Origin: Centroscyllium fabricii
Taxonomy: Eukaryota
Length of the DNA: 64,000 bases
Direction of reading: 5' to 3'
Assembly: GCA_051313645.2 (NCBI GenBank)
Contig: JBNRSN020000029.1
Location: 41,044,001 to 41,108,000, forward strand
A program made the translations under genes and the position numbers. Shown one piece after another: positions 2,161 to 26,325 of the stretch (its first letter is position 1; every line of letters begins with the position of its first letter). The notes beneath the pieces are model-generated. The model had not been told where the DNA came from, did not search any database, and saw only the letters and a program-made list of their open reading frames with translations.

Positions 2161-2234
2161 AAATTTACTTTCAGTTGCGCCGTGTTGAAATATTTTCCCA
2201 ATGCCTGCGCACTAATTGCCCAACAAACTCTTAT

Positions 2235-3325
2235 TGTAACGGAATGTGGTGGGGCCCAAATGCAGAGACACTGAAACGTCTTTCTAGAGCAAAACTCCTT
2301 TAATATAAACAGATTACCGAAAACCCAATAAATGCATTCATACACAAATATATATACACATCTAAACAAGTCTTTGCTGAAGACTGGCACAAGTTTCCAA
2401 CAGTTACAAAAATACAGAGATAGAGAAAGAAAACAGGTTCCCTTCGGAACTGGCACCAAACTTCCCAAAGTTGTGTGGAATGCTACGCAGCCAAGCGCAC
2501 CATTGAGTAGAGGAATGCTACGCAGCCAAGCGCATCATTGACTAGAGGAATACATGTCCAAAACCTGAATACAGGTGGGTGCAAGCTATGTCCTGGATAA
2601 GTACTGGAACTCTCCCATGGTCCGCCCTACAGCTGGAACCCATCTCTCCCGGAGTTTTCAGAAGGAGAATCCAAGTACTGGAACTCTCCCATGGTCCGCC
2701 CTACAGCTGGAACCCATCTCTCCCGGAGTTTTCAGAAGGAGAATCCATCCTTAATCCTTGGGACTCCTTACATACCCTACAGCAACGTCCATACCTGAGT
2801 TCGGGTGATAATGACCAAATGTCCAAGGAGTAGATACGGGATCTCTTCCGAGTCCGCCCTGCGGTCGAGACTCACTCCCACGGAGTCTTCTGAGGAAGAG
2901 AATACCTGATCCACTAGCAGGGGAACGTCCTTACTCGACAGATGAATGTCCAAGCCTGAGCTTCATGTAGCAGAGTGCAATGTCCAGGCTGAGCGATTGA
3001 ACTCCCAAACCCATTGCCTCTCCAGCAGCTCAGAAACAGCAACCAACTCTTCCAGTAGTTTGAAGAAAAGTCAATTCAATCCAATGAATCCAGCTAATGA
3101 TCCCGCACCTGTCTCGTCAAGACCTCCAGCTTATGAGCCAACCCGGCAAACAGATCACTTGGTGTTAGCCAATAAGCTGCAGGCAACGAGAACAGGGACA
3201 CACAGGCAAGTGAAACAGATAATCGATAAGATAATATAATAACAGGGGAACATGTCCTCAATACAGCTGTGCTGCACACAACCAAGCTGTCTTTGAAACC
3301 TTAAAGGGACAGGCACCCTGTGACA
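2235..3325 (-). repeat. 3' LTR of the mini LTR element (1091 bp)
   Basis: About 98% identical to 3494-4510, apart from a 74-bp tandem duplication. Confidence 0.92.
2599..2746. repeat. Perfect 74-bp x2 tandem duplication, present in one LTR only
   Basis: AAGTACTGGAACTCTCC...GGAGAATCC occurs at 2599-2672 and 2673-2746, but once in the other LTR. This explains the 1091 vs 1017 bp length difference. Confidence 0.95.
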
Positions 3326-3481
3326 GAACCCCCCCCTTAAAGGGACGACTGCGACGGCCCAAATACCCAAAATGCCGGAATAGGGTGGGCGGAGGGGTAC
3401 GGAGAAGAGACAACCGTCCTCCAGGAAAAAGGAAACTTAACGAGTGCTAGACGCTACAGTGTCTGCTGGGCCCCAAAACTG

Positions 3482-3493
3482 GCGGGATCATTC
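3482..3493 (-). promoter_or_regulatory. Self-priming primer-binding site (non-tRNA)
   Basis: Minus-strand GAATGATCCCGC next to the 5' LTR. Eleven nt are complementary to GCGGGATCATT inside the LTR (plus-strand AATGATCCCGC at 4281-4291). Confidence 0.75.
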
Positions 3494-4510
3494 TGTAACG
3501 GAATGTGGTGGGTCCCAAATGCAGAGACACTGAAACGTCTTTCTAGAGCAAAACTCCTTTAATATAAACAGATTACCGAAAACCCAATAAATGCATTCAT
3601 ACACAAATATATATACACATCTAAACAAGTCTTTGCTGAAGACTGGCACAAGCTTCCTACAGTTACAAAAATACAGAGATAGAGAAAGAAAACAAGTTCC
3701 CTTCGGAACTGGCACCTAACATCCCAAAGTTGTGTGGAATGCTACGCAGCCAAGCGCACCATTGAGTAGAGGAATGCTACGCAGCCAAGCACATCATTGA
3801 CTAGAGGAATACATGTCCAAAACCTGAATACAGGTGGGTGCAAGCTATGTCCTGGATAAGTACTGGAACTCTCCCATGGTCCGCCCTACAGCTGGAACCC
3901 ATCTCTCCCGGAGTTTTCAGAAGGAGAATCCATCCTTAATCCTTGGGACTCCTTACATACCCTACAGCAACGTCCAAACCTGAGTTCGGGTGATAATGAC
4001 CAAATGTCCAAGGAGTAAATACTGGATCTCTTCCGAGTCCGCCCTGCGGTCGAGACTCACTCCCACGGAGTCTTCTGAGGAAGAGAATACCTGATCCACT
4101 AGCAGGGGAACGCCCTTACTCGACAGATGAATGTCCAAGCCTGAGCTTCAGGTAGCAGAGTGCAATGTCCAGGCTGAGCGATTGAACTCCCAAACCCATT
4201 GCCTCTCCAGCAGCTCAGAAACAGCAACCAACTCTTCCAGTAGTGTGAAGAAAAGTCAATTCAATCCAATGAATCCAGCTAATGATCCCGCACCTGTCTC
4301 GTCAAGACCTCCAGCTTATGAGCCAAACCGGCAAACAGATCACTTGGTGTTAGCCAATAAGCTGCAGGCAACGAGAACAGGGACACACAGGCAAGTGAAA
4401 TAGATAATCGATAAGATAATAGAATAACAGGGGAACAAGTCCTCAATACAGCTGTGCTGCACACAACCAAGCTGTCTTTGAAACCTTAAAGCGACAGGCA
4501 CCCTGTGACA
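3494..4510 (-). repeat. 5' LTR of the mini LTR element (1017 bp)
   Basis: The minus strand runs TGTCACA...CGTTACA. It has a TATA-like CATAAG near 4315-4320 and an ATTAAA poly(A) signal at 3558-3563. Confidence 0.92.
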
Positions 4511-5069
4511 CTTATGGCTCGTAAAAGCAGGCGTAGGGCCTGCTGTCAACAGCATATTGGTTATTATCAACCTTAAATTAAATATATTCAACTGAAGAAT
4601 TATGCACACACACGTAAAATTAGTTTATGCAAGTGTTGCCCCTGATTACATTTTTAAAATTACTTTTCAAAAATTAAGTTTTATTGTAACTGCTGTAATG
4701 AAGATATTTCTAGTTGCATTTTGCAATCAGGTCATCTATATTTATAACAGTTGTCTAAATTGTTTTAATTATTTGGAGATTCCAGGAGGATTTATTGGGG
4801 ATTTCGTTCAGAAATTGAATCCTCATTTCTTATTGAATAACCTGGCCCACGGGATCGCAGAGAAACTTCCGAAACGCTCATATCCCTGGGATCCGTGGGC
4901 CTTTATGCAGGCATATGCCTGGAGGTCCATGGCCAGCTTTGCTGAACCCTTGGGAGCTTGCAAGATCACATTTCGTTGTTCATGTACTTGTACATTGCAT
5001 AATGACAATAACGTTGAATTATTATTATTATTATTATTAGTACACTCATTAGTTTTGGAGCGAGGATGT

Positions 5070-5560
5070 AAGTTCATAGATCTTTCACGGGTCAGAGATG
5101 AACCCCGGTGGTACGTCCCCAACTGCAAATTCAGGGCCATTGTTTTTTGAAGTTTTCTAAACATTGCTTTTTTTATCATAAAAGATAAAAATGACACTCT
5201 GCTAGTAAGAAATTTTGTTTTTCAGAGAGAAAACGTTTGTATACCAGTCAATACGCCATTAAAACCCTAGTTACCAGTTGCAACTTTTCCTACAACGCTT
5301 AATATCAATGTTCATGGAAGCATTTCTTCAAACAAACGCTTAGTTAAATTTCTGCACATGTACATTTCTGATTACTCTTGAATCTGGTTTCTCCTATTGC
5401 CATGTTATGTAGTCAGTCGCAGTAAAACACATTGATCTCATCAATTGACTCTGTGCTAGTTTGGCATTCCTATATCGTCCTTCTAGACCAACCGCTACCG
5501 TTTAGTTGCGAAAGGTAATCAATTCTGCTCCTCTGATTCTTCTCTGTGATAACTTTTCTG
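5070..5560 (+). repeat. Right arm of the old inverted duplication (partner about 1690-2160)
   Basis: Colinear with the reverse complement of 1690-2160. Confidence 0.8.
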
Positions 5561-18465: not shown

Positions 18466-18716
18466 TGTAGCACCGGCAGGCCCAGGAACCACACGTGAGC
18501 CAGAGCTAGAGAAAAGCACAGCTTTAATCACTAGTACAAAACAAGAAAAAGAAAGAGACTGAACCACTCGAGACAGGCATATTTAAACGGTCCCGCGGTT
18601 GGTGACGTCATCGCGTCGGCCGACGTGATGACGTCGTTGCGTCACCCGGATTAGCGGGGCTTTGCTCCGCGGAGTCCCCGTGGCGGATTCGATGTCCCCG
18701 TGGGTGTACCGCCACA
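18466..18716 (-). repeat. 3' LTR of the CsRN1-clade element
   Basis: TG...CA ends; about 95% identical to 22675-22925. Confidence 0.95.
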
Positions 18717-18758
18717 CAGCTCCCCCCAGAATCCGTCCGGGAGGAATAGTGACAGTGT

Positions 18759-21518
18759 CTATGTGTGCCGTTGGGGTGGCCGGATGATGCGGCCGGACCG
18801 TGTTGCTAGTAGTCTCTGGTTCTGCGGTGGAGTGTGGGTGGGTTTTGCTGCGGGAGGGCGACCGCGTTGTGGTGGTTGTGCGGGGACCGTGGTCTCACCC
18901 GCTATCACATGTGCCGGCTTGAGCCGGTCTATTGTTACAGTGTCAGTCCTGTTACCCATTTGTAATTCGAAAGCTTTCGCTCCCGCCCGAAGCACTCTGT
19001 AGGGGCCATCGTAAGGTGGCTTTAGTGGAGATCGGTGTCTGTCGTGCCGAACGAACACAAATTTGGCATTTTTAATGTTGTCTGGCACCCGAGCCGCCGG
19101 CTCTCCGTGCCGGGCCACTGGTAGTGGCTGGAAAGCTCGTGCCGGGTTAGCAAAATCTTTTAAATACTGGTCGGCTGACCAGGGAGCATTGGGCTCAGCC
19201 AGGAACTCGCCCGGCACCGTTAAAGTTTGGCCGTAGACGAGCTCCGCTGCCGAGGCATTGAGGTCTTCTTTGACTGCCGAGCGCAGCCCAAGGAGGACCC
19301 ATGGAAGGCGGTCGGTCCACGATGCGTCCTTTAGCGTGGCCCGTAGTGATGCCTTCATCGAGCGGTGGAACCGTTCGCATAGGCCGTTCGCCTGTGGGTG
19401 GTAGGCGGTGGTTCGGTGTAGCGTTACCCCGAGGTCACGGGCGATGGCCGCCCATAATGCCGATGTAAACTGGGGTCCTCTGTCGGAGGTGATGTCTGTG
19501 GGCACGCCAAATCGGGCGACCCAGGTGGCGATGAACACCCTGGCCAAGTCCGTGGTGCCGGTGGCAGTGAGGGGGACTGCTTCTGGCCAGCGAGTGTTGC
19601 GGTCGACCATGGTCATTAGGTGCGTGGGGCCCCGGGATGGCGGTAGTGGCCCGACGAGATCTATGTGGACGTGGTCAAAACGCCTGGCCGGTACTTTAAA
19701 ATTTTCCAGCGGTGCCCTGATGTGCTTATGCACTTTGGAGCGCTGGCAGGCTATGTAGGAGCTGGCCCAGGTGCGGACGTCTTTGCGCAGGCCGCGCCAT
19801 ACGAAACGGGCCGATATTAGCTTAATGGACGCGCGGGCGCCGGGGTGGGACCGGTCATGGAGGGTCCTAAAGATATGTTGCCTCCAAGCGTGGGGCACGA
19901 CGGGCCTGGGTTGCGGTAACGAAACATCACAGCAGACGACGGTGGCAGCGGGGCCGCACGCGATATTGGCCAAGTGAAGGCCGGAGAGATTAGTTGCTGC
20001 GTTGAGTAGGTCAGGGTCGGCCAGCTGGTCAGCGGCCAGCTGGGCGTAATCGACCGCCATTTGGGCGGCGTTAATGGTGGGGCATGAGAGGCAGTCAGCC
20101 ACCACGTTGTCGCGACCGGAAATGTGCTGTATGTCGGTTGTAAATTCCGACATGGCCACGAGTTGGCGCTGCTGCCTGGCCGACCAGGGTTCAGCGACCT
20201 TAGCCATCGCAAATGTGAGTGGCTTATGGTCGCTGAAGGCTGTAAAGTGGCGGCCCTCCAAGAGGAAACGAAAATGTCGCACCGCCAGATGGAGAGAGAG
20301 CAGCTCTCTATCAAAGGCGCTGTATTTAACCTCTGGGGGCCGGAGTTGCCGGCTGAAAAAGGCCAAGGGCTGCCATGAGTTGCCGGTCCACTGCTCAAAT
20401 ACGGCCCAGACTGCATGGTCGGAGGCGTCGGTGGTGAGGGCTACTCTGGCTTTGGGCCTAGGGTGGGCTAGCAGGGTGGCGTTTGCCAGGGCGGTTTTAG
20501 TTGCGGTAAAGGCGGTGGCGGCTTCTGCCGTCCACTCGACCGCAGCCTTATTGGACTGCCCGTGGGTGGCCTGGTATAAGGGGGCCATGAGAGCGGCTGC
20601 TCCGGGGATAAAGCGGTTATAAAAATTAACCATCCCCAGTAATTCCTGCAGCCCTTTAATGGAGTGCGGGCGGGGCAATTCTTGTACCGCCTGAACCTTC
20701 GAGGGCAGGGGTATGGCCCCTGTTTGGGAAATGCGGTGGCCGAGGAAGTCAATGGTCTCGAGGCCGAATTTACATTTGGTGGGGCTTAAAATAAGGCCGT
20801 GTTCAGTAAGGCGTTGGAACAGGGTCCTGAGGTGCAGGAGGTGTTCCTGGGGGGAGGTGCTGGCCACGAGGATGTCGTCTAGGTAGACGAAGATGAACTT
20901 CAAGTCCCGTAGGACCGAGTCCATGAGGCGCTGGAAGGCCTGGGCTGCGTTTTTAAGGCCGAAGGGCATCCTAATAAACTCGAAGAGTCCGAAGGGGGTA
21001 ATTACGGTCGTTTTGGGAATATCCGCCGGGTGCACCAGAACCTGGTGATAGCCACGCACCAGGTCGATCTTAGAAAAGATCGTACAACCCGCTAATCTGG
21101 CGGAAAAATCCTGGATGTGGGGTACGGGGTACCTATCCGGGGTGGTGGCGTTATTAAGACGGCGGTAGTCGCCGCAGGGGCGCCAACCTCCGTCGGGCTT
21201 GGGGGCTATGTGGAGCGGAGAGGACCAGGGGCTGCTGGAGTGGCGGATTATACCAAGTTGCTCCATATTGCGGAACTTGGTGCGCGCGATCTCCTGCTTG
21301 GCCGGGTCGAGCCTACGGGCGTGGGCATGGACGGGCGGGCCTGTGGTGGTAATAAAATGCTCCACCCCGTGATTGGCCTTGCGGGCGGTGAACGTGGGGT
21401 TGGTTAGGGCGGGGAACTCTGCCAGGAGCGTGCCGTAGGCATCGGAGTCCCTGGAGTGGCATTGGGCTGCCACGTGGGCCACGAGTGCGGGCCCTGTAGA
21501 GCATGGGATGGTCGTCAT
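18759..21518 (-). CDS. pol: Gypsy pol: reverse transcriptase, RNase H, integrase (919 aa open frame)
   Basis: RT motifs WRPCGDYRRLN, MPFGLKNA and YLDD. RNase H motifs TDAS and DHKPL. Integrase H-H-C motif, HIDLVGPLP, SDRGPQF, YHPQANGLCERFH and the GPY/F module (PYDGPY). Confidence 0.95.
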   Translation of the reverse strand: MTTIPCSTGPALVAHVAAQCHSRDSDAYGTLLAEFPALTNPTFTARKANHGVEHFITTTGPPVHAHARRLDPAKQEIARTKFRNMEQLGIIRHSSSPWSSPLHIAPKPDGGWRPCGDYRRLNNATTPDRYPVPHIQDFSARLAGCTIFSKIDLVRGYHQVLVHPADIPKTTVITPFGLFEFIRMPFGLKNAAQAFQRLMDSVLRDLKFIFVYLDDILVASTSPQEHLLHLRTLFQRLTEHGLILSPTKCKFGLETIDFLGHRISQTGAIPLPSKVQAVQELPRPHSIKGLQELLGMVNFYNRFIPGAAALMAPLYQATHGQSNKAAVEWTAEAATAFTATKTALANATLLAHPRPKARVALTTDASDHAVWAVFEQWTGNSWQPLAFFSRQLRPPEVKYSAFDRELLSLHLAVRHFRFLLEGRHFTAFSDHKPLTFAMAKVAEPWSARQQRQLVAMSEFTTDIQHISGRDNVVADCLSCPTINAAQMAVDYAQLAADQLADPDLLNAATNLSGLHLANIACGPAATVVCCDVSLPQPRPVVPHAWRQHIFRTLHDRSHPGARASIKLISARFVWRGLRKDVRTWASSYIACQRSKVHKHIRAPLENFKVPARRFDHVHIDLVGPLPPSRGPTHLMTMVDRNTRWPEAVPLTATGTTDLARVFIATWVARFGVPTDITSDRGPQFTSALWAAIARDLGVTLHRTTAYHPQANGLCERFHRSMKASLRATLKDASWTDRLPWVLLGLRSAVKEDLNASAAELVYGQTLTVPGEFLAEPNAPWSADQYLKDFANPARAFQPLPVARHGEPAARVPDNIKNAKFVFVRHDRHRSPLKPPYDGPYRVLRAGAKAFELQMGNRTDTVTIDRLKPAHVIAGETTVPAQPPQRGRPPAAKPTHTPPQNQRLLATRSGRIIRPPQRHT

Positions 21519-21523
21519 GGTGT

Positions 21524-22504
21524 TTAAATCACCAAGCGGCGCTGAGTTACATCGAACAGTAGGCCATAGGTGCAGAGGAAGTCTGCCCCGAGGATGGGAG
21601 AAGTGACCTGGGCTGTTACAAAATCCCAGGTGTACGTGTGGCTTGCAAGGGTTATAGTTAGCTTGCAGGTGCCGTACGTTTTTATATTAGAGCCGTTGGC
21701 TGCCGCTAGTGGCGGGCCCCGGGTACCCCGTTTGCTTTCTGCAGGGCAGGCTGGCACAATGCTGTGCTGCGCGCCTGTGTTGCAGAGGAACCTGATGCCT
21801 GTACCGCTGTCTGTGGCGAAGAGCAGTGCTCCTGTGTGGCCTACAGACATGGTGGGGGCTGAGGTGGGCCGTGACTTGAACGTGCATGGCTGGACACAGC
21901 GGTGCGCTTTGTGTTCAAACCGCGTGTGGTAATAGCACCAGCCGGTGCTAGAGGGACACGGTTGTCTGGGCGGGCGCGGGGCCCTAGGTTCAGGCGTAAC
22001 GTTGTGCCTGGGGGGTGATTGGCTGCGCTCTACCGATGCGGAGTTAGGGTCGCACATGGTTGAGTGGGTGCGCTGGGCCTCCATGAGCCTGTTGGCCTCC
22101 TCTCCGAGTTCATCATCGCTCCGGTGGCAAAGGGCCGCCAAGGCCGGTCTGATGGCGCGGGGCAGTTTGAGGAGGAAGACGGTGCGGAAGAGGGAGGCCG
22201 GGTTGGGTGTGAGCGCTTGCATCTGACCTAAGAGGTCCGATGGGTCTGCGTCCCCGAGTTCGGGGAGGTCGAGGAGCTGGCAGTTGCACTCAAATTGGGA
22301 GGGGGTAAATTTTTTGATAAGCGCGGCCTTAAGCGTTTCATACCTGCCTGCGATGGGCACGCGCTGGACTTTTGACCACATCCGATCAATCGTCGTCTGT
22401 GGTAGGGCTGTGAACACCAGGTCATACCGGTCGTCCCCGTTGATGCCATGTGTGCGGCAGCTGGCCTCGATGCAGACGAACCAGGCCGCTGGCCGTTGCT
22501 CCAT
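21524..22504 (-). pseudogene. gag: Gypsy gag-protease, frameshifted relative to pol
   Basis: CYYHTRFEHKAHRCVQPC CHCC knuckle. The protease site reads FLCNTGA (catalytic D changed to N) and ILGADFL is present. Apparent indels at the LPEFW motif and at RLV(D). Confidence 0.88.
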
Positions 22505-22660
22505 CAGAACTCCGGTAGAGTCAATCCACGCCCGGCGTTCTGTCCAGCTCCTTGAGTTCGTGGAGCTTAGTTTCTTGGGTTAACCATGCTTTCTGTTAAA
22601 AGTCTTTGGCTGGTGGTCCCAGATCCTGCGGCAGCTTAACTTCTCTGGAAGTCGTTCCAG

Positions 22661-22673
22661 TTCAGGGTCACCA
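22661..22673 (-). promoter_or_regulatory. Primer-binding site complementary to the tRNA-Trp 3' end
   Basis: TGGTGACCCTGA, 1 nt after the 5' LTR. The tRNA-Trp PBS consensus is TGGTGACCCCGA. Confidence 0.8.
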
Positions 22674-22674
22674 C

Positions 22675-22925
22675 TGTAGCGCCGGCAGGCCGAGGAACCA
22701 CAGGTGAGCCAGAGCTGGAGAAAAACACAGCTTTAATCACTGGTACAAAACAAGAAAAAGAAAGAGACTGAACCACTCGAGACAGGCATATTTAAACGGT
22801 CCCGCGGTTGGTGACGTCATCGCGTCAACCGACGCGATGACGTCGCCGCGTCACCCGGATGAGCGGGGCTTTGCTCCGCGGAGTCCCCGTGGCGGATTCG
22901 ATGTCCCCGTGGGCGTACCGCCACA
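22675..22925 (-). repeat. 5' LTR of the CsRN1-clade element
   Basis: Matches 18466-18716 and is followed by the CAAT TSD. Confidence 0.95.
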
Positions 22926-24613
22926 CAATTCCATTGAATAAGTGCTGAAGAATATTAAACGGAATGCATTATTGCTGGTAGTAAGGCGTAAGGTGAAGCT
23001 TCATTAATTTCAGTTGTTTTTTTACAACCCATTGGAATTTCCATTTTAGCAAGTCTGATATTCCCATCTGTCCCATTGTAGCACAATAAAAGTAATCTAT
23101 GTGCTGGATGATGTCCAAAATGCAACGCGTAGCTTATCAGAAAATTCACATTGCATTGATCGTGCTTTTTGGTCCATTAGACTAAATGGAATGAAAATCA
23201 TAGGAATTTCACTAGACATATACTGTAAGTTGCTGGTGGCCGGCACTGGTACAGCAATGGCAGAGAACTCCCTTTGTCGAATCCACAGTTCGATTCTTCT
23301 ACAATGCCATTTTTATGCTACGTAGCTGGTTATCTAACGCTTTATGAGCGGCTGACCAGATTTGTTACACGGTCATTTTGATAGACATTGTAATTTGGAA
23401 TTTGCTGTAAGCTATCAGATCTTGCAAAAATCCACTGAATAAAACTACTGCTTGGTGAGTGGGTTGCCCCTGAGAGGATCATAATCTAAAAGTCTGTTGA
23501 GCATTCAGATTGTGCCAAAATCAACTTCCGTCGCAATTCTTATTAAAGCAGGCATGGCTCAACACCAGACTTATCAAGTGGCTTTTTAGCATCTCAGAGA
23601 GTCGGTTTACGAACAGTTCCAAAATTATTTCGCCTCAGATCCTACAGAAGACTGACGAGTGTATACAGTGATCAATCACCTTTGCTCCAACCGATATTAC
23701 GTTCCATTTACTTTAATAGAACTGAATATCGGGTGTGTTGTATAACAGTCCTCAAATGCGATTCAGTCCTTCCTACGTCCCTGCCCAAATTAAATTTGAT
23801 ATGCATTGTGTCTTATATAGAACAGTACATAAATAATCAATCTAAGTAGTGTCGCATAGGTTTGTAGGCACTAGGTTTCATTACTCACCATTGATTGAAC
23901 AATGTTTGTGCTGATCTAAAATATTTGGAAAAAACAATTAATAATCATAATCATAAGCACTGTATTATAAAATGCGTGTTGAATCATTCAATAAAAGCTT
24001 TTTGCGATAACTAATCAGATAAACATATTCCAAACAGCCAATTTCTAAAGTCATTCCTTTTGCTTGTATTATACCTTCAGTTTTTTTACTCAGCTTCGTT
24101 TCTGTTGAGGAATACAGCACGATATGTGTGTGTTTAGATATTTTCAGCCTTTAGTATGCGAGCAATACCTAATTATTTCCAATTACATTGCAAGTGAAGG
24201 AAATTCAGTTGTAATCAAGTAAACCTTTTCATATAGTACAACATTTTGATATCGTTTGTGAAACGCCAATGATACATGGACATGTTATTTCCACAAGGTC
24301 ATAATTATATCATATCGTTAACTATCAAGCCATGAGGATTATTCAATTTTCAGTTTATAATGCTGAGGGTACGAATAATTATTTCATGAAGATGTGGAAA
24401 GGTCTTTATTGTGCACCAATCTTGTGAAATCACAATCCCGTTCTCTTTGAATAATTTCAACAGTTCCCTATAGTTAGCCCACGTTGGAAATTCTGTCCGC
24501 AAAATGTGTGTATTACAAATGATCGTGATGTGGAGGTGCCAGTGTTAGACTGGGGTGGACAAATGCAAGAAGTCACACAACACCAGGTTATAGTCCAACA
24601 GTTTTATTTTAAA

Positions 24614-24900: not shown

Positions 24901-26192
24901 TCACATGTAGCGTGATATGAAGCCGATATCACCGTTGAGACCGTCCTCATGGGTGCAGAATTTGGCTATCAGCCTCTGCTCGACGATTTTGCGTTGTCGT
25001 GTGTCTCGACGGCCACCTTGGAGAATGCTTACCTGAAGATCGGAGGCTGAGTGTCCTTCACTGCTGAAATGTTCCCCGACTGGGAGGGAACACTCCTGCC
25101 TGGCAATTGTTGTGTGGTGTCCGTTCATCCATTGCTGAAGTGTCTGCATGGTCTCGCCGATGTACCATGCCCTGGGGCATACTTTCCTGCAACGTATGAG
25201 GTAGACAATATTGGTCGAGTTACATGAGTATGTACCATGTACCTGATGTGGGGTGTCCTCAAGTGTGATGATGGTCTCTGTGCTGATGATTTGGCACGTT
25301 TTGCGAGGTTGCTGTGGCAGGGTTGTGTGGTGTCGTAGTTGTTGTTCTCCTGAATGCTGGGTAATTTGCTGCGAACGATAGTCTGTTTGAGGTTAGGTGG
25401 CTGTTTGAAGGCGAGTAGTGGAGGCGTGGGGATGGCCTTAGCGAGGTGTTCGTCGTCATCAATGACATGTGGAAGGCTGCAAAGAACATGGTGTAGTTTC
25501 TCCGCTCTTTGGAAGTACTGGACGACAAAGGGTACTCTGTTGGTTGTGTCCCGTGGTCGTCTTCCGAGGAGGTCTATGCGATTTTTCGTTATGGCCCATC
25601 GGAACTGTTGATCGATGAGTCGAGTGTCATATCCCGTTCTTACGAGGCCGTCTTTCAGTGTCTGTAGGTGTCCGTCGCGTTCCTCCTCATCTGAGCAGAT
25701 CCTGTTTGTTCGCAGGGCTTGTCCATAGGGGATGGCTTCTTTAACGTGGTTTAGGTGGAAGCTGGAGTAGTGGAGCATCCTTAGGTTGTCCGTGGGTTTG
25801 CGGTAGAGGGAAGTGCTGTGGTGTCTGTTCTTGATGGAGATTCGTGTGTCCAAGAATGAAACCGATTCTGAGGAGTAGTCCATGGTGAGTTTGATGGTGG
25901 GATGGAACTTGTTTATGTTATCGTGTAGTCCTTTCAGTGATTCTTCACCGTGGTTCCACAGGAGGAAAATGTCGTCGATGTATCTGGTGTATAGTGTTGC
26001 TTGGAGGTACTGTGTAGCGATGAAGTCTTGCTCGAACTTGTGCATGAATATGTTGGCGTATTGGGGTGCGAATTTGATCCCCACGGCTGTCCCGTGTGTT
26101 TGGGTAAAAAAACTGTTGTCGAAGGTGAAAATATTGTGGACAAGGATGAAGCGCATGAGTTGTGGGATGATGTCTGGAGATTGGCTGTTCAA
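24901..26192 (-). pseudogene. Penelope RT plus GIY-YIG endonuclease (frameshifted)
   Basis: QTHGTAVGIKFAPQYANIFM, RYIDD, FLD and LYRKPTD. A shifted frame gives NIVYLIRC...WYIGET, then PVGEHFS...E...GLN (ORF 24901-25149). Confidence 0.9.
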
Positions 26193-26325
26193 TTCAATTC
26201 AATTCAAGTTTTATTGTCATTGCAGAGTACTAGTGCAATACAACGAGACGAAGACTCGACGCTCCCGAGAGTAGTGCAAATAAATTACATGCAAATTGCA
26301 TACAGTAAAGTACATTATCAGGCGT
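26188..26325 (-). mobile_element. Short LINE 3' tail nested in the PLE RT region
   Basis: The minus strand ends AATAAAAC(TTGAA)n and interrupts PLE coding sequence between AAKASV and NSQSPD. Confidence 0.6.

Follow-up and report, generated by a model that had tools for sequence, protein, structure and literature searches.

The 64,000-nt stretch of the Centroscyllium fabricii genome analysed here (hereafter, the window) contains, on the minus strand, a 2,276-bp LTR retroelement (hereafter, mini element), in which two long LTRs bordered by a target site duplication (TSD) enclose a core of only 168 bp (Table 1). The TG..CA termini of the LTRs, the 5-bp TSD, the polypurine tract (PPT) and the length of the core are all as described in the original prediction, with the LTRs measuring 1,017 and 1,091 bp. 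The two LTRs differ at 18 of the 1,017 aligned positions, and the 3' LTR has one additional 74-bp tandem unit. The mismatches include 12 transversions versus 6 transitions, a pattern from which most other sampled copies of the family differ; this excess of transversions may reflect recombination of two subfamily templates rather than age.

Also as predicted, the primer binding site (PBS) next to the 5' LTR does not start with TGG and is exactly complementary to an 11-nt site (hereafter, 11-mer) located downstream of a TATA-like CATAAG in the 5' LTR; a second copy of the 11-mer is present in the 3' LTR. The exact complement of the PBS occurs once per LTR and nowhere else in the 64-kb window, and the 11-mer was recovered in 4 of 20,000 shuffled LTRs. 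The motif resembling a gag start that had been noticed in the core proved to be a true gag relic, which additionally provides the leader half of a predicted stem between U5 and the leader (see below).

Table 1. Features of the mini element and its insertion site (window coordinates)
Feature	Position	Strand	Remarks
Mini element	2235..4510	-	2,276 bp in total
5' LTR	3494..4510	-	1,017 bp, TG..CA
3' LTR	2235..3325	-	1,091 bp, TG..CA; additional 74-bp tandem unit at 2599-2746
TSD, left copy	2230..2234	.	CTTAT, 5 bp
TSD, right copy	4511..4515	.	CTTAT, 5 bp
Non-coding core	3326..3493	-	168 bp
PPT	3329..3338	-	
PBS	3482..3492	-	complementary to 4281-4291; 1 nt (G) between LTR and PBS
11-nt self-primer site	4281..4291	-	putative transcript bases 1-11
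11-mer copy in 3' LTR	3096..3106	-	
TATA-like CATAAG	4315..4320	-	begins 29 nt before the 11-mer; same position as TATAAG in coding partner LTRs
Poly(A)-signal-like ATTAAA	3558..3563	-	70 nt before LTR end; 3' LTR copy at 2299-2304; AATAAA at about the same distance in partners
U5 strand of predicted U5-leader stem	3510..3540	-	
Gag-start relic	3442..3478	-	no in-frame ATG; doubles as leader strand of U5-leader stem
Protease-region relic	3421..3444	-	~20 nt; clear in sister copy L162 and in 368-bp intermediate L168, more diverged in the window
Pre-PPT tail	3326..3421	-	82-86% identity to final ~98 internal bases of partner family
35-bp tandem unit x2.1 inside R	3736..3810	.	second location 2477-2551

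The mini element is enclosed by an older pair of inverted repeats of ~470 bp (1695-2154 and 5079-5553; 75% complementary), which may represent a fold-back or MITE-like element. A 184-aa stop-free frame at 4596-5150 yielded no Pfam match, and a 356-aa frame at 25125-26198 with a weak match to the reverse transcriptase (RT) domain (PF00078) is probably a LINE fragment.

A search of the 7.2-Gb assembly (1,598 contigs) with the core and its junctions showed that the core is not unique to this locus, as expected from the earlier suggestion that the element was mobilized in its deleted form: all 40 scored matches are 98-100% identical to the query over 241 nt. Among the 30 loci fetched from this search, 22 carry a 5-bp TSD, five a 6-bp TSD, two have none and one could not be delimited. 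The 6-bp TSDs (L006, L020, L022, L026 and L030) thus account for 5 of the 27 copies with a TSD. Consistent with the trans-mobilization that the original prediction had anticipated for copies sharing one core, the TSDs differ from copy to copy, with 26 distinct ones among the 30 loci, spread over many contigs. The exact LTR-PBS junction is found 2,688 times in the assembly and an 18-mer from the leader 7,466 times (reversed-pattern controls, 0 in both cases). All of the first-listed 20 junction loci have cores of 161-172 bp, and their LTRs, representing several subfamilies, align to those in the window at about 70-90%. Of 40 further loci with the leader 18-mer, 34 have measured cores of 152-190 bp, four have the same core as judged by eye and two were unmeasured. 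The samples other than the 30 core-search loci consist of the first-listed sites of one contig and are hence non-random. At ~7,500 cores of ~2.1 kb, the family would occupy roughly 16 Mb, or 0.2% of the assembly. The core is non-coding (longest stop-free frame, 40 aa).

Some observations could be accommodated by a different history, in which a full-length element suffered a deletion after insertion and the product then multiplied through segmental duplication or recombination instead of retrotransposition. Tandem LTR-core-LTR arrays do exist (L032, L041), two copies located 10.5 kb apart (L024 and L025) have one TSD in common, and tandems of Tf1 can, as described in PMC11042837, form without integrase. 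However, the diversity of TSDs across many contigs, together with LTR pairs that are mostly less than 2% apart within each of the 30 core-search copies, in contrast to the diverged LTRs of the subfamilies, indicates repeated rounds of reverse transcription and integration. We therefore consider the duplication scenario, which is largely refuted already, to be extremely improbable. With its LTRs, PBS and PPT, independent insertions, lack of enzymes and a coding partner (see below), the family belongs to the non-autonomous LTR retrotransposons in the broad sense.

A degenerate pattern combining the PBS with a gag ATG yielded 8,439 exact matches and revealed the partner family, which is young, in the same genome. 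Among 60 fetched loci, the internal regions span 3.7-5.0 kb in 36 cases, 1.8-2.0 kb in three and ~0.7 kb in three, the remaining 18 not being delimited. The one full-length copy that was scanned encodes gag, protease (below the cut-off), RT, RNase H, integrase, a Tf2-like SH3 domain and a chromodomain, with the integrase preceding the chromodomain in Pol (PF00665, PF24626 and PF00385). Judging from its domains, LTR end motifs and type of priming, the partner is a Tf1/sushi-type chromovirus, in line with the origin proposed for the mini element from its sequence, and the core is homologous to this family. In total, 127 of 160 elements were delimited, of which 96 with matched LTRs and at least 10 pairs in the priming duplex were retained. 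The median divergence between the two LTRs is 0.65% in mini elements (n=70) and 0.85% in full-length copies (n=22), so that the two are of similar age and the activity of helpers likely overlapped in time with that of the mini elements.

Comparison of the core with the partner shows that it consists of three pieces, namely, ~50 nt covering the PBS and the gag start, ~20 nt of the protease region and a pre-PPT tail of ~95 nt. Elements of intermediate size, including gag-protease-only, ~700-bp and 368-bp forms, connect the partner with the mini element. Four of these (L151, L096, L156 and L168) have a common junction, which removes RT, RNase H and most of the integrase (partner positions ~1350 to ~3708), and L168 combines a 368-bp core with the leader of the mini elements, so that the loss of a further 200 nt yields the 168-bp form. 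The common junctions suggest stagewise descent from the full-length element down to 168 bp. The gag-protease-only elements form a separate family with a single 616-aa ORF, at least 150 copies of which are identical over the 151 aa searched. The LTRs of this family (L096, G000:C1488:214325253-214335252; L101-L130) are 649 bp long and 99.8% identical, indicative of a very young age; some copies are arranged in tandem and the family has an 11-nt duplex of its own.

The LTRs of mini elements and partners align only over short stretches (about 70-85% identity over 34-70 nt), and their PBSs differ at 1-4 of the 11 positions. The lineage in the window was likely mobilized by this partner family, but these comparisons single out no particular subfamily. 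A pattern search for the exact PBS of the window followed by a gag ATG gave 0 matches; the partner was detected with a degenerate PBS only. Other candidates were considered as well. The 30 best loci with a Tf2-like SH3 domain and 20 loci with long frames turned out to belong mainly to sushi families different from the partner, whose LTRs are short and whose 11-nt duplexes differ. Four elements (L081, L082, L095 and L097) represent older sushi-type families with LTRs of ~340-400 bp, in which differing 11-nt duplexes are found ~28 nt after the TATTTAAG box. A gypsy element within the window (18466-22927), with 253-bp LTRs (95% identical), a 975-aa pol frame (RT, RNase H, integrase) and an upstream DUF7041 frame, was rejected as the helper, given that it shows no chromodomain match and no LTR similarity to the mini element.

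If the element primes reverse transcription with its own RNA, the PBS and the 11-mer should change together, and compensatory changes in the duplex had been named as a way to check the original prediction. Non-coding copies with the same core display five fully Watson-Crick versions of the PBS/LTR-site pair, in which both sides have changed: AACGATCCGGC/GCCGGATCGTT, AATGATCCGGC/GCCGGATCATT, AATGATCCCGC/GCGGGATCATT (the version in the window), AATGATCCAGC/GCTGGATCATT and AATGAACCAGC/GCTGGTTCATT. The corresponding pairs are AACGATCTGGC/GCCAGATCGTT in the full-length partner and AACGAACTGGC/GCCAGTTCGTT in the gag-protease family. Of the 87 delimited mini elements, 64 form 11 Watson-Crick pairs, 79 do so when G.U is included, and 85 form at least 10 pairs. 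In 66 of the 70 rows of mini elements (copies with at least 10 pairs), RNA base 3 is engaged in G-C (29), C-G (27), U-A (8) or other (2) pairs, base 6 in A-U (63) or U-A (3), and base 9 in A-U (51) or G-C (13). Column identity at the primer site is 0.90 versus 0.43 and 0.42 in the ungapped flanks. The search pattern prescribed or restricted the PBS side in the LTR-PBS junction sample and in one other, and left it free in the leader-18-mer sample; the LTR side was unconstrained in every pattern. These paired changes are tallied per copy; on the core tree, in which 16 of 64 branches are well supported, 11 label changes account for the 8 PBS types.

The alternative is that the family, although mobilized in trans, takes its primer from a host tRNA or a fragment of one, with the 11-mer persisting in the LTR as an inherited relic. 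This type of priming is the norm for TRIMs, as summarized in PMC6934838, and for the non-autonomous families of sugar beet covered by PMC13570524. However, in addition to the missing TGG, there are five PBS sequences, each matched by its own LTR, and a host tRNA could not have followed such changes. The best tRNA match extends for 5 nt near the LTR, in a comparison limited to the 11 distinct tRNA genes recovered, which represent two types (Lys and Cys). We thus regard a tRNA primer as very improbable. The original claim that the element has no tRNA PBS is supported, and the paired changes constitute strong evidence, at the sequence level, in favour of self-priming and against priming by a tRNA.

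In Tf1, the primer consists of the first 11 bases of its own RNA, released by RNase H cleavage (as outlined in PMC7175516), and about half of the cDNA ends carry a copied PBS (as reported in PMC11042837). Matching of the two sides of the duplex is therefore explicable by templating as well as by selection, each of which requires self-priming. In eight copies (L186, L187, L190, L196, L199, L207, L208 and L213), a PBS-terminal T stands opposite a G of the 11-mer, that is, as a heritable G.U pair, which suggests that position 11 sometimes escapes overwriting by the primer; in these copies, the primer may be 10 nt long or the capped base may remain uncopied. One copy (L042) lacks the primer site in both LTRs, yet has a TSD, as might be expected of a dead-end product whose parent had an altered 3' LTR. 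In both LTRs of L042, the TATA and primer region (LTR positions ~110-180) is swapped for a fragment beginning like the 5' end of a partner-type LTR, possibly through a template switch between co-packaged RNAs.

Folding of the predicted 852-nt RNA segment (4291-3440) recovers the 11-bp duplex in both the minimum free energy and the centroid structures, and the fold as a whole is no more stable than those of shuffled sequences (z -0.72). With the PBS blocked, U5 and the gag-start relic are predicted to form 27 bridging pairs (-32.9 kcal/mol; the best of 50 leader shuffles reached -29.4). This U5-leader stem outperforms all 50 shuffles in 8 of 21 copies of lineage A, 15 of 16 of lineage B, 4 of 12 full-length and 2 of 4 gag-protease elements, so that the stem is supported by modelling, less firmly than the 11-bp duplex. 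The duplex and the stem cross each other, and ViennaRNA cannot model both within a single fold. In the ATG-bearing copies L148 and L156, folded with the usual U5, a C.A mismatch of the stem falls within the Met-Asp codons; in the displayed non-coding copies of lineage B and in L038, the stem is fully paired at this site. A similar U5-leader structure in Tf1 was reportedly described by Lin and Levin in 1997.

Self-priming might also operate with a primer supplied in trans by another RNA, or transcription might start elsewhere, implying a shorter R. Retrotransposon RNAs are packaged as dimers, according to PMC7175516, so that a duplex between two mini element RNAs is possible, and the start at 4291 is placed by analogy. 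Two runs that cover the unique flanks at a depth of 5-8 look like DNA contigs and so carry no information on the start. Against this, the mismatches noted above between the partner 11-mer and the PBSs of mini elements would make partner RNA a poor primer, and the TATA-like and poly(A)-like motifs hold the spacing seen in the partner. On balance, either variant appears very unlikely, and the preferred reading is that the 11-mer at the start of the element's own transcript serves as the primer.

The long R proposed for the mini element is likewise supported by homology, in that the TATA-like motif keeps the spacing of TATAAG in the partner and the poly(A)-like hexamer its position: in all classes, A(A/T)TAAA precedes the LTR end by 68-84 nt in almost every copy. 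Median LTR length is 521 bp in the partner and 996 bp in mini elements. If the 11-mer is taken as the start, R and U5 together have a median of 786 nt in mini elements versus 367 nt in full-length copies, and U3 of 219 versus 156. Hence, by sequence comparison, LTR growth is mostly in R and, where readable, occurred by tandem duplication, involving 35- and 74-bp units in the window, a 243-bp unit in L156 and length steps of ~100 bp in lineage B. No capture of internal sequence by R was detected when 22 LTRs were compared by blastn with the internal regions of 13 partner copies. Growth of R as a means of multiplying GGAC[ACT] motifs was also rejected: there are 6.8 of these per R-U5 in lineage A, 2.9 in lineage B and 2.5 in full-length copies, so that density does not rise consistently.

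One tentative explanation for the long R, which we consider rather doubtful, is a size floor, whereby self-priming sushi-type particles would need an RNA of at least ~1.6-1.7 kb and the parasite would be selected to rebuild, through tandem duplication in R, the length lost from its interior. In the 70 mini elements with matched LTRs, the LTRs span 891-1,226 bp, with none below 891 bp (predicted RNA of at least 1.71 kb); one-sided LTR deletions in mini elements go down to 517-841 bp. A separate element with a 688-bp core has lengthened its R by a 243-bp duplication of its own. By contrast, two elements with a 712-bp internal region (L144 and L261) have an ordinary LTR of ~540 bp and a predicted RNA of ~1.6 kb, with one altered LTR each. 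Furthermore, the mini elements probably have one origin and hence are non-independent, and plant non-autonomous elements can be as small as 291 bp in the survey of PMC13570524. On another reading, the long LTRs were inherited from one long-LTR ancestor.

The mini element shares with Tf1 of Schizosaccharomyces pombe and the sushi chromoviruses, as these are described in PMC7175516, PMC4600332 and PMC6317226, an 11-nt complementarity between the PBS and the predicted 5' region of the RNA, the location of the LTR site just past a TATA-like box, a PBS that is not tRNA-derived and, in its partner, a chromodomain-bearing integrase. The ends of its LTRs also fit the sushi motifs TGTYANR and CNTNACA given in PMC3601003. 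Unlike those elements, it has no coding capacity and its duplex closes a loop of ~800 nt, and its LTRs of about 1 kb compare with 328-538 bp in the pufferfish V-clade elements of PMC11117352. Like TRIMs, as characterized in PMC6934838, the mini elements are multi-copy, carry TSDs, have a non-coding core with PBS and PPT between terminal repeats and form LTR-sharing tandem arrays. However, at 2.3 kb they exceed the TRIM limit of 1 kb, their LTRs are ~1 kb rather than 100-250 bp, the PBS tracks the LTR of the same element instead of deriving from a tRNA, and the parent and intermediates are traceable. They also fall short of the >4 kb stated for LARDs in PMC13570524.

Further parallels come from plants. 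The non-autonomous elements of sugar beet cover, as presented in PMC13570524, a continuous range of sizes in which families pairing long LTRs with a short core are numerous; they comprise elements of intermediate size, occur in tandem copies and include gag/protease-only TR-GAG elements, of which the 616-aa gag-protease family would be the animal counterpart. The PBS motifs reported there are tRNA-derived, whereas the mini element derives from an animal chromovirus, has a self-priming duplex and can be traced through a series of deletion stages. Thus, the novelty originally attached to a TRIM-like design with giant LTRs was overstated: the layout is common among the plant elements, and self-priming was inherited from the Tf1/sushi parent.

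Taken together, the window very probably contains a recently inserted member of a non-coding, high-copy family that arose by deletion from a Tf1/sushi-type element in the same genome; it was likely mobilized by partner proteins and likely self-primed with the 11 bases at the 5' end of its RNA. On the model of Tf1, transcription would start at 4291, and bases 1-11 would pair with the PBS across the R-U5 loop, with U5 and the leader forming pairs as well. The RT/RNase H of the partner would then cleave after base 11 and extend the resulting fragment, plus-strand synthesis would begin at the PPT, and the partner integrase would create the 5-bp TSD, with the proteins of the partner family packaging, copying and integrating the RNA of the mini element. 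Both sides of the duplex would be kept matched by selection and because the primer is copied into each new PBS.

Vertebrate self-priming elements were reportedly described by Butler et al. in 2001. Self-priming has been demonstrated for Tf1 and implicated or predicted in other hosts, including vertebrates, as covered by PMC4600332 and PMC6317226. Thus, the mechanism itself is not new, and self-priming and long-LTR, short-core layouts were each known before. A search confined to the literature, as distinct from repeat databases such as Repbase and Dfam, and covering mainly titles and the beginnings of abstracts, yielded no paper on vertebrate LTR families that are both non-coding and self-priming. 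The family, a considerable repeat at roughly 16 Mb, is likely to be missed by pipelines that demand a tRNA PBS or coding domains. The family defines a near-minimal set of cis-elements, namely, the 11-mer at the start, the U5-leader stem, the PBS, a ~95-nt tail and the PPT. Should the size floor be true, the family would also amount to a natural experiment, set in a vertebrate, in which evolution has tried out five primer sequences and probed both size limits and self-priming. Its chief value lies in evidence for self-priming from natural covariation in an animal, unaffected by coding constraint, and in the deletion path from a full-length element to 168 bp, which is preserved within one genome.
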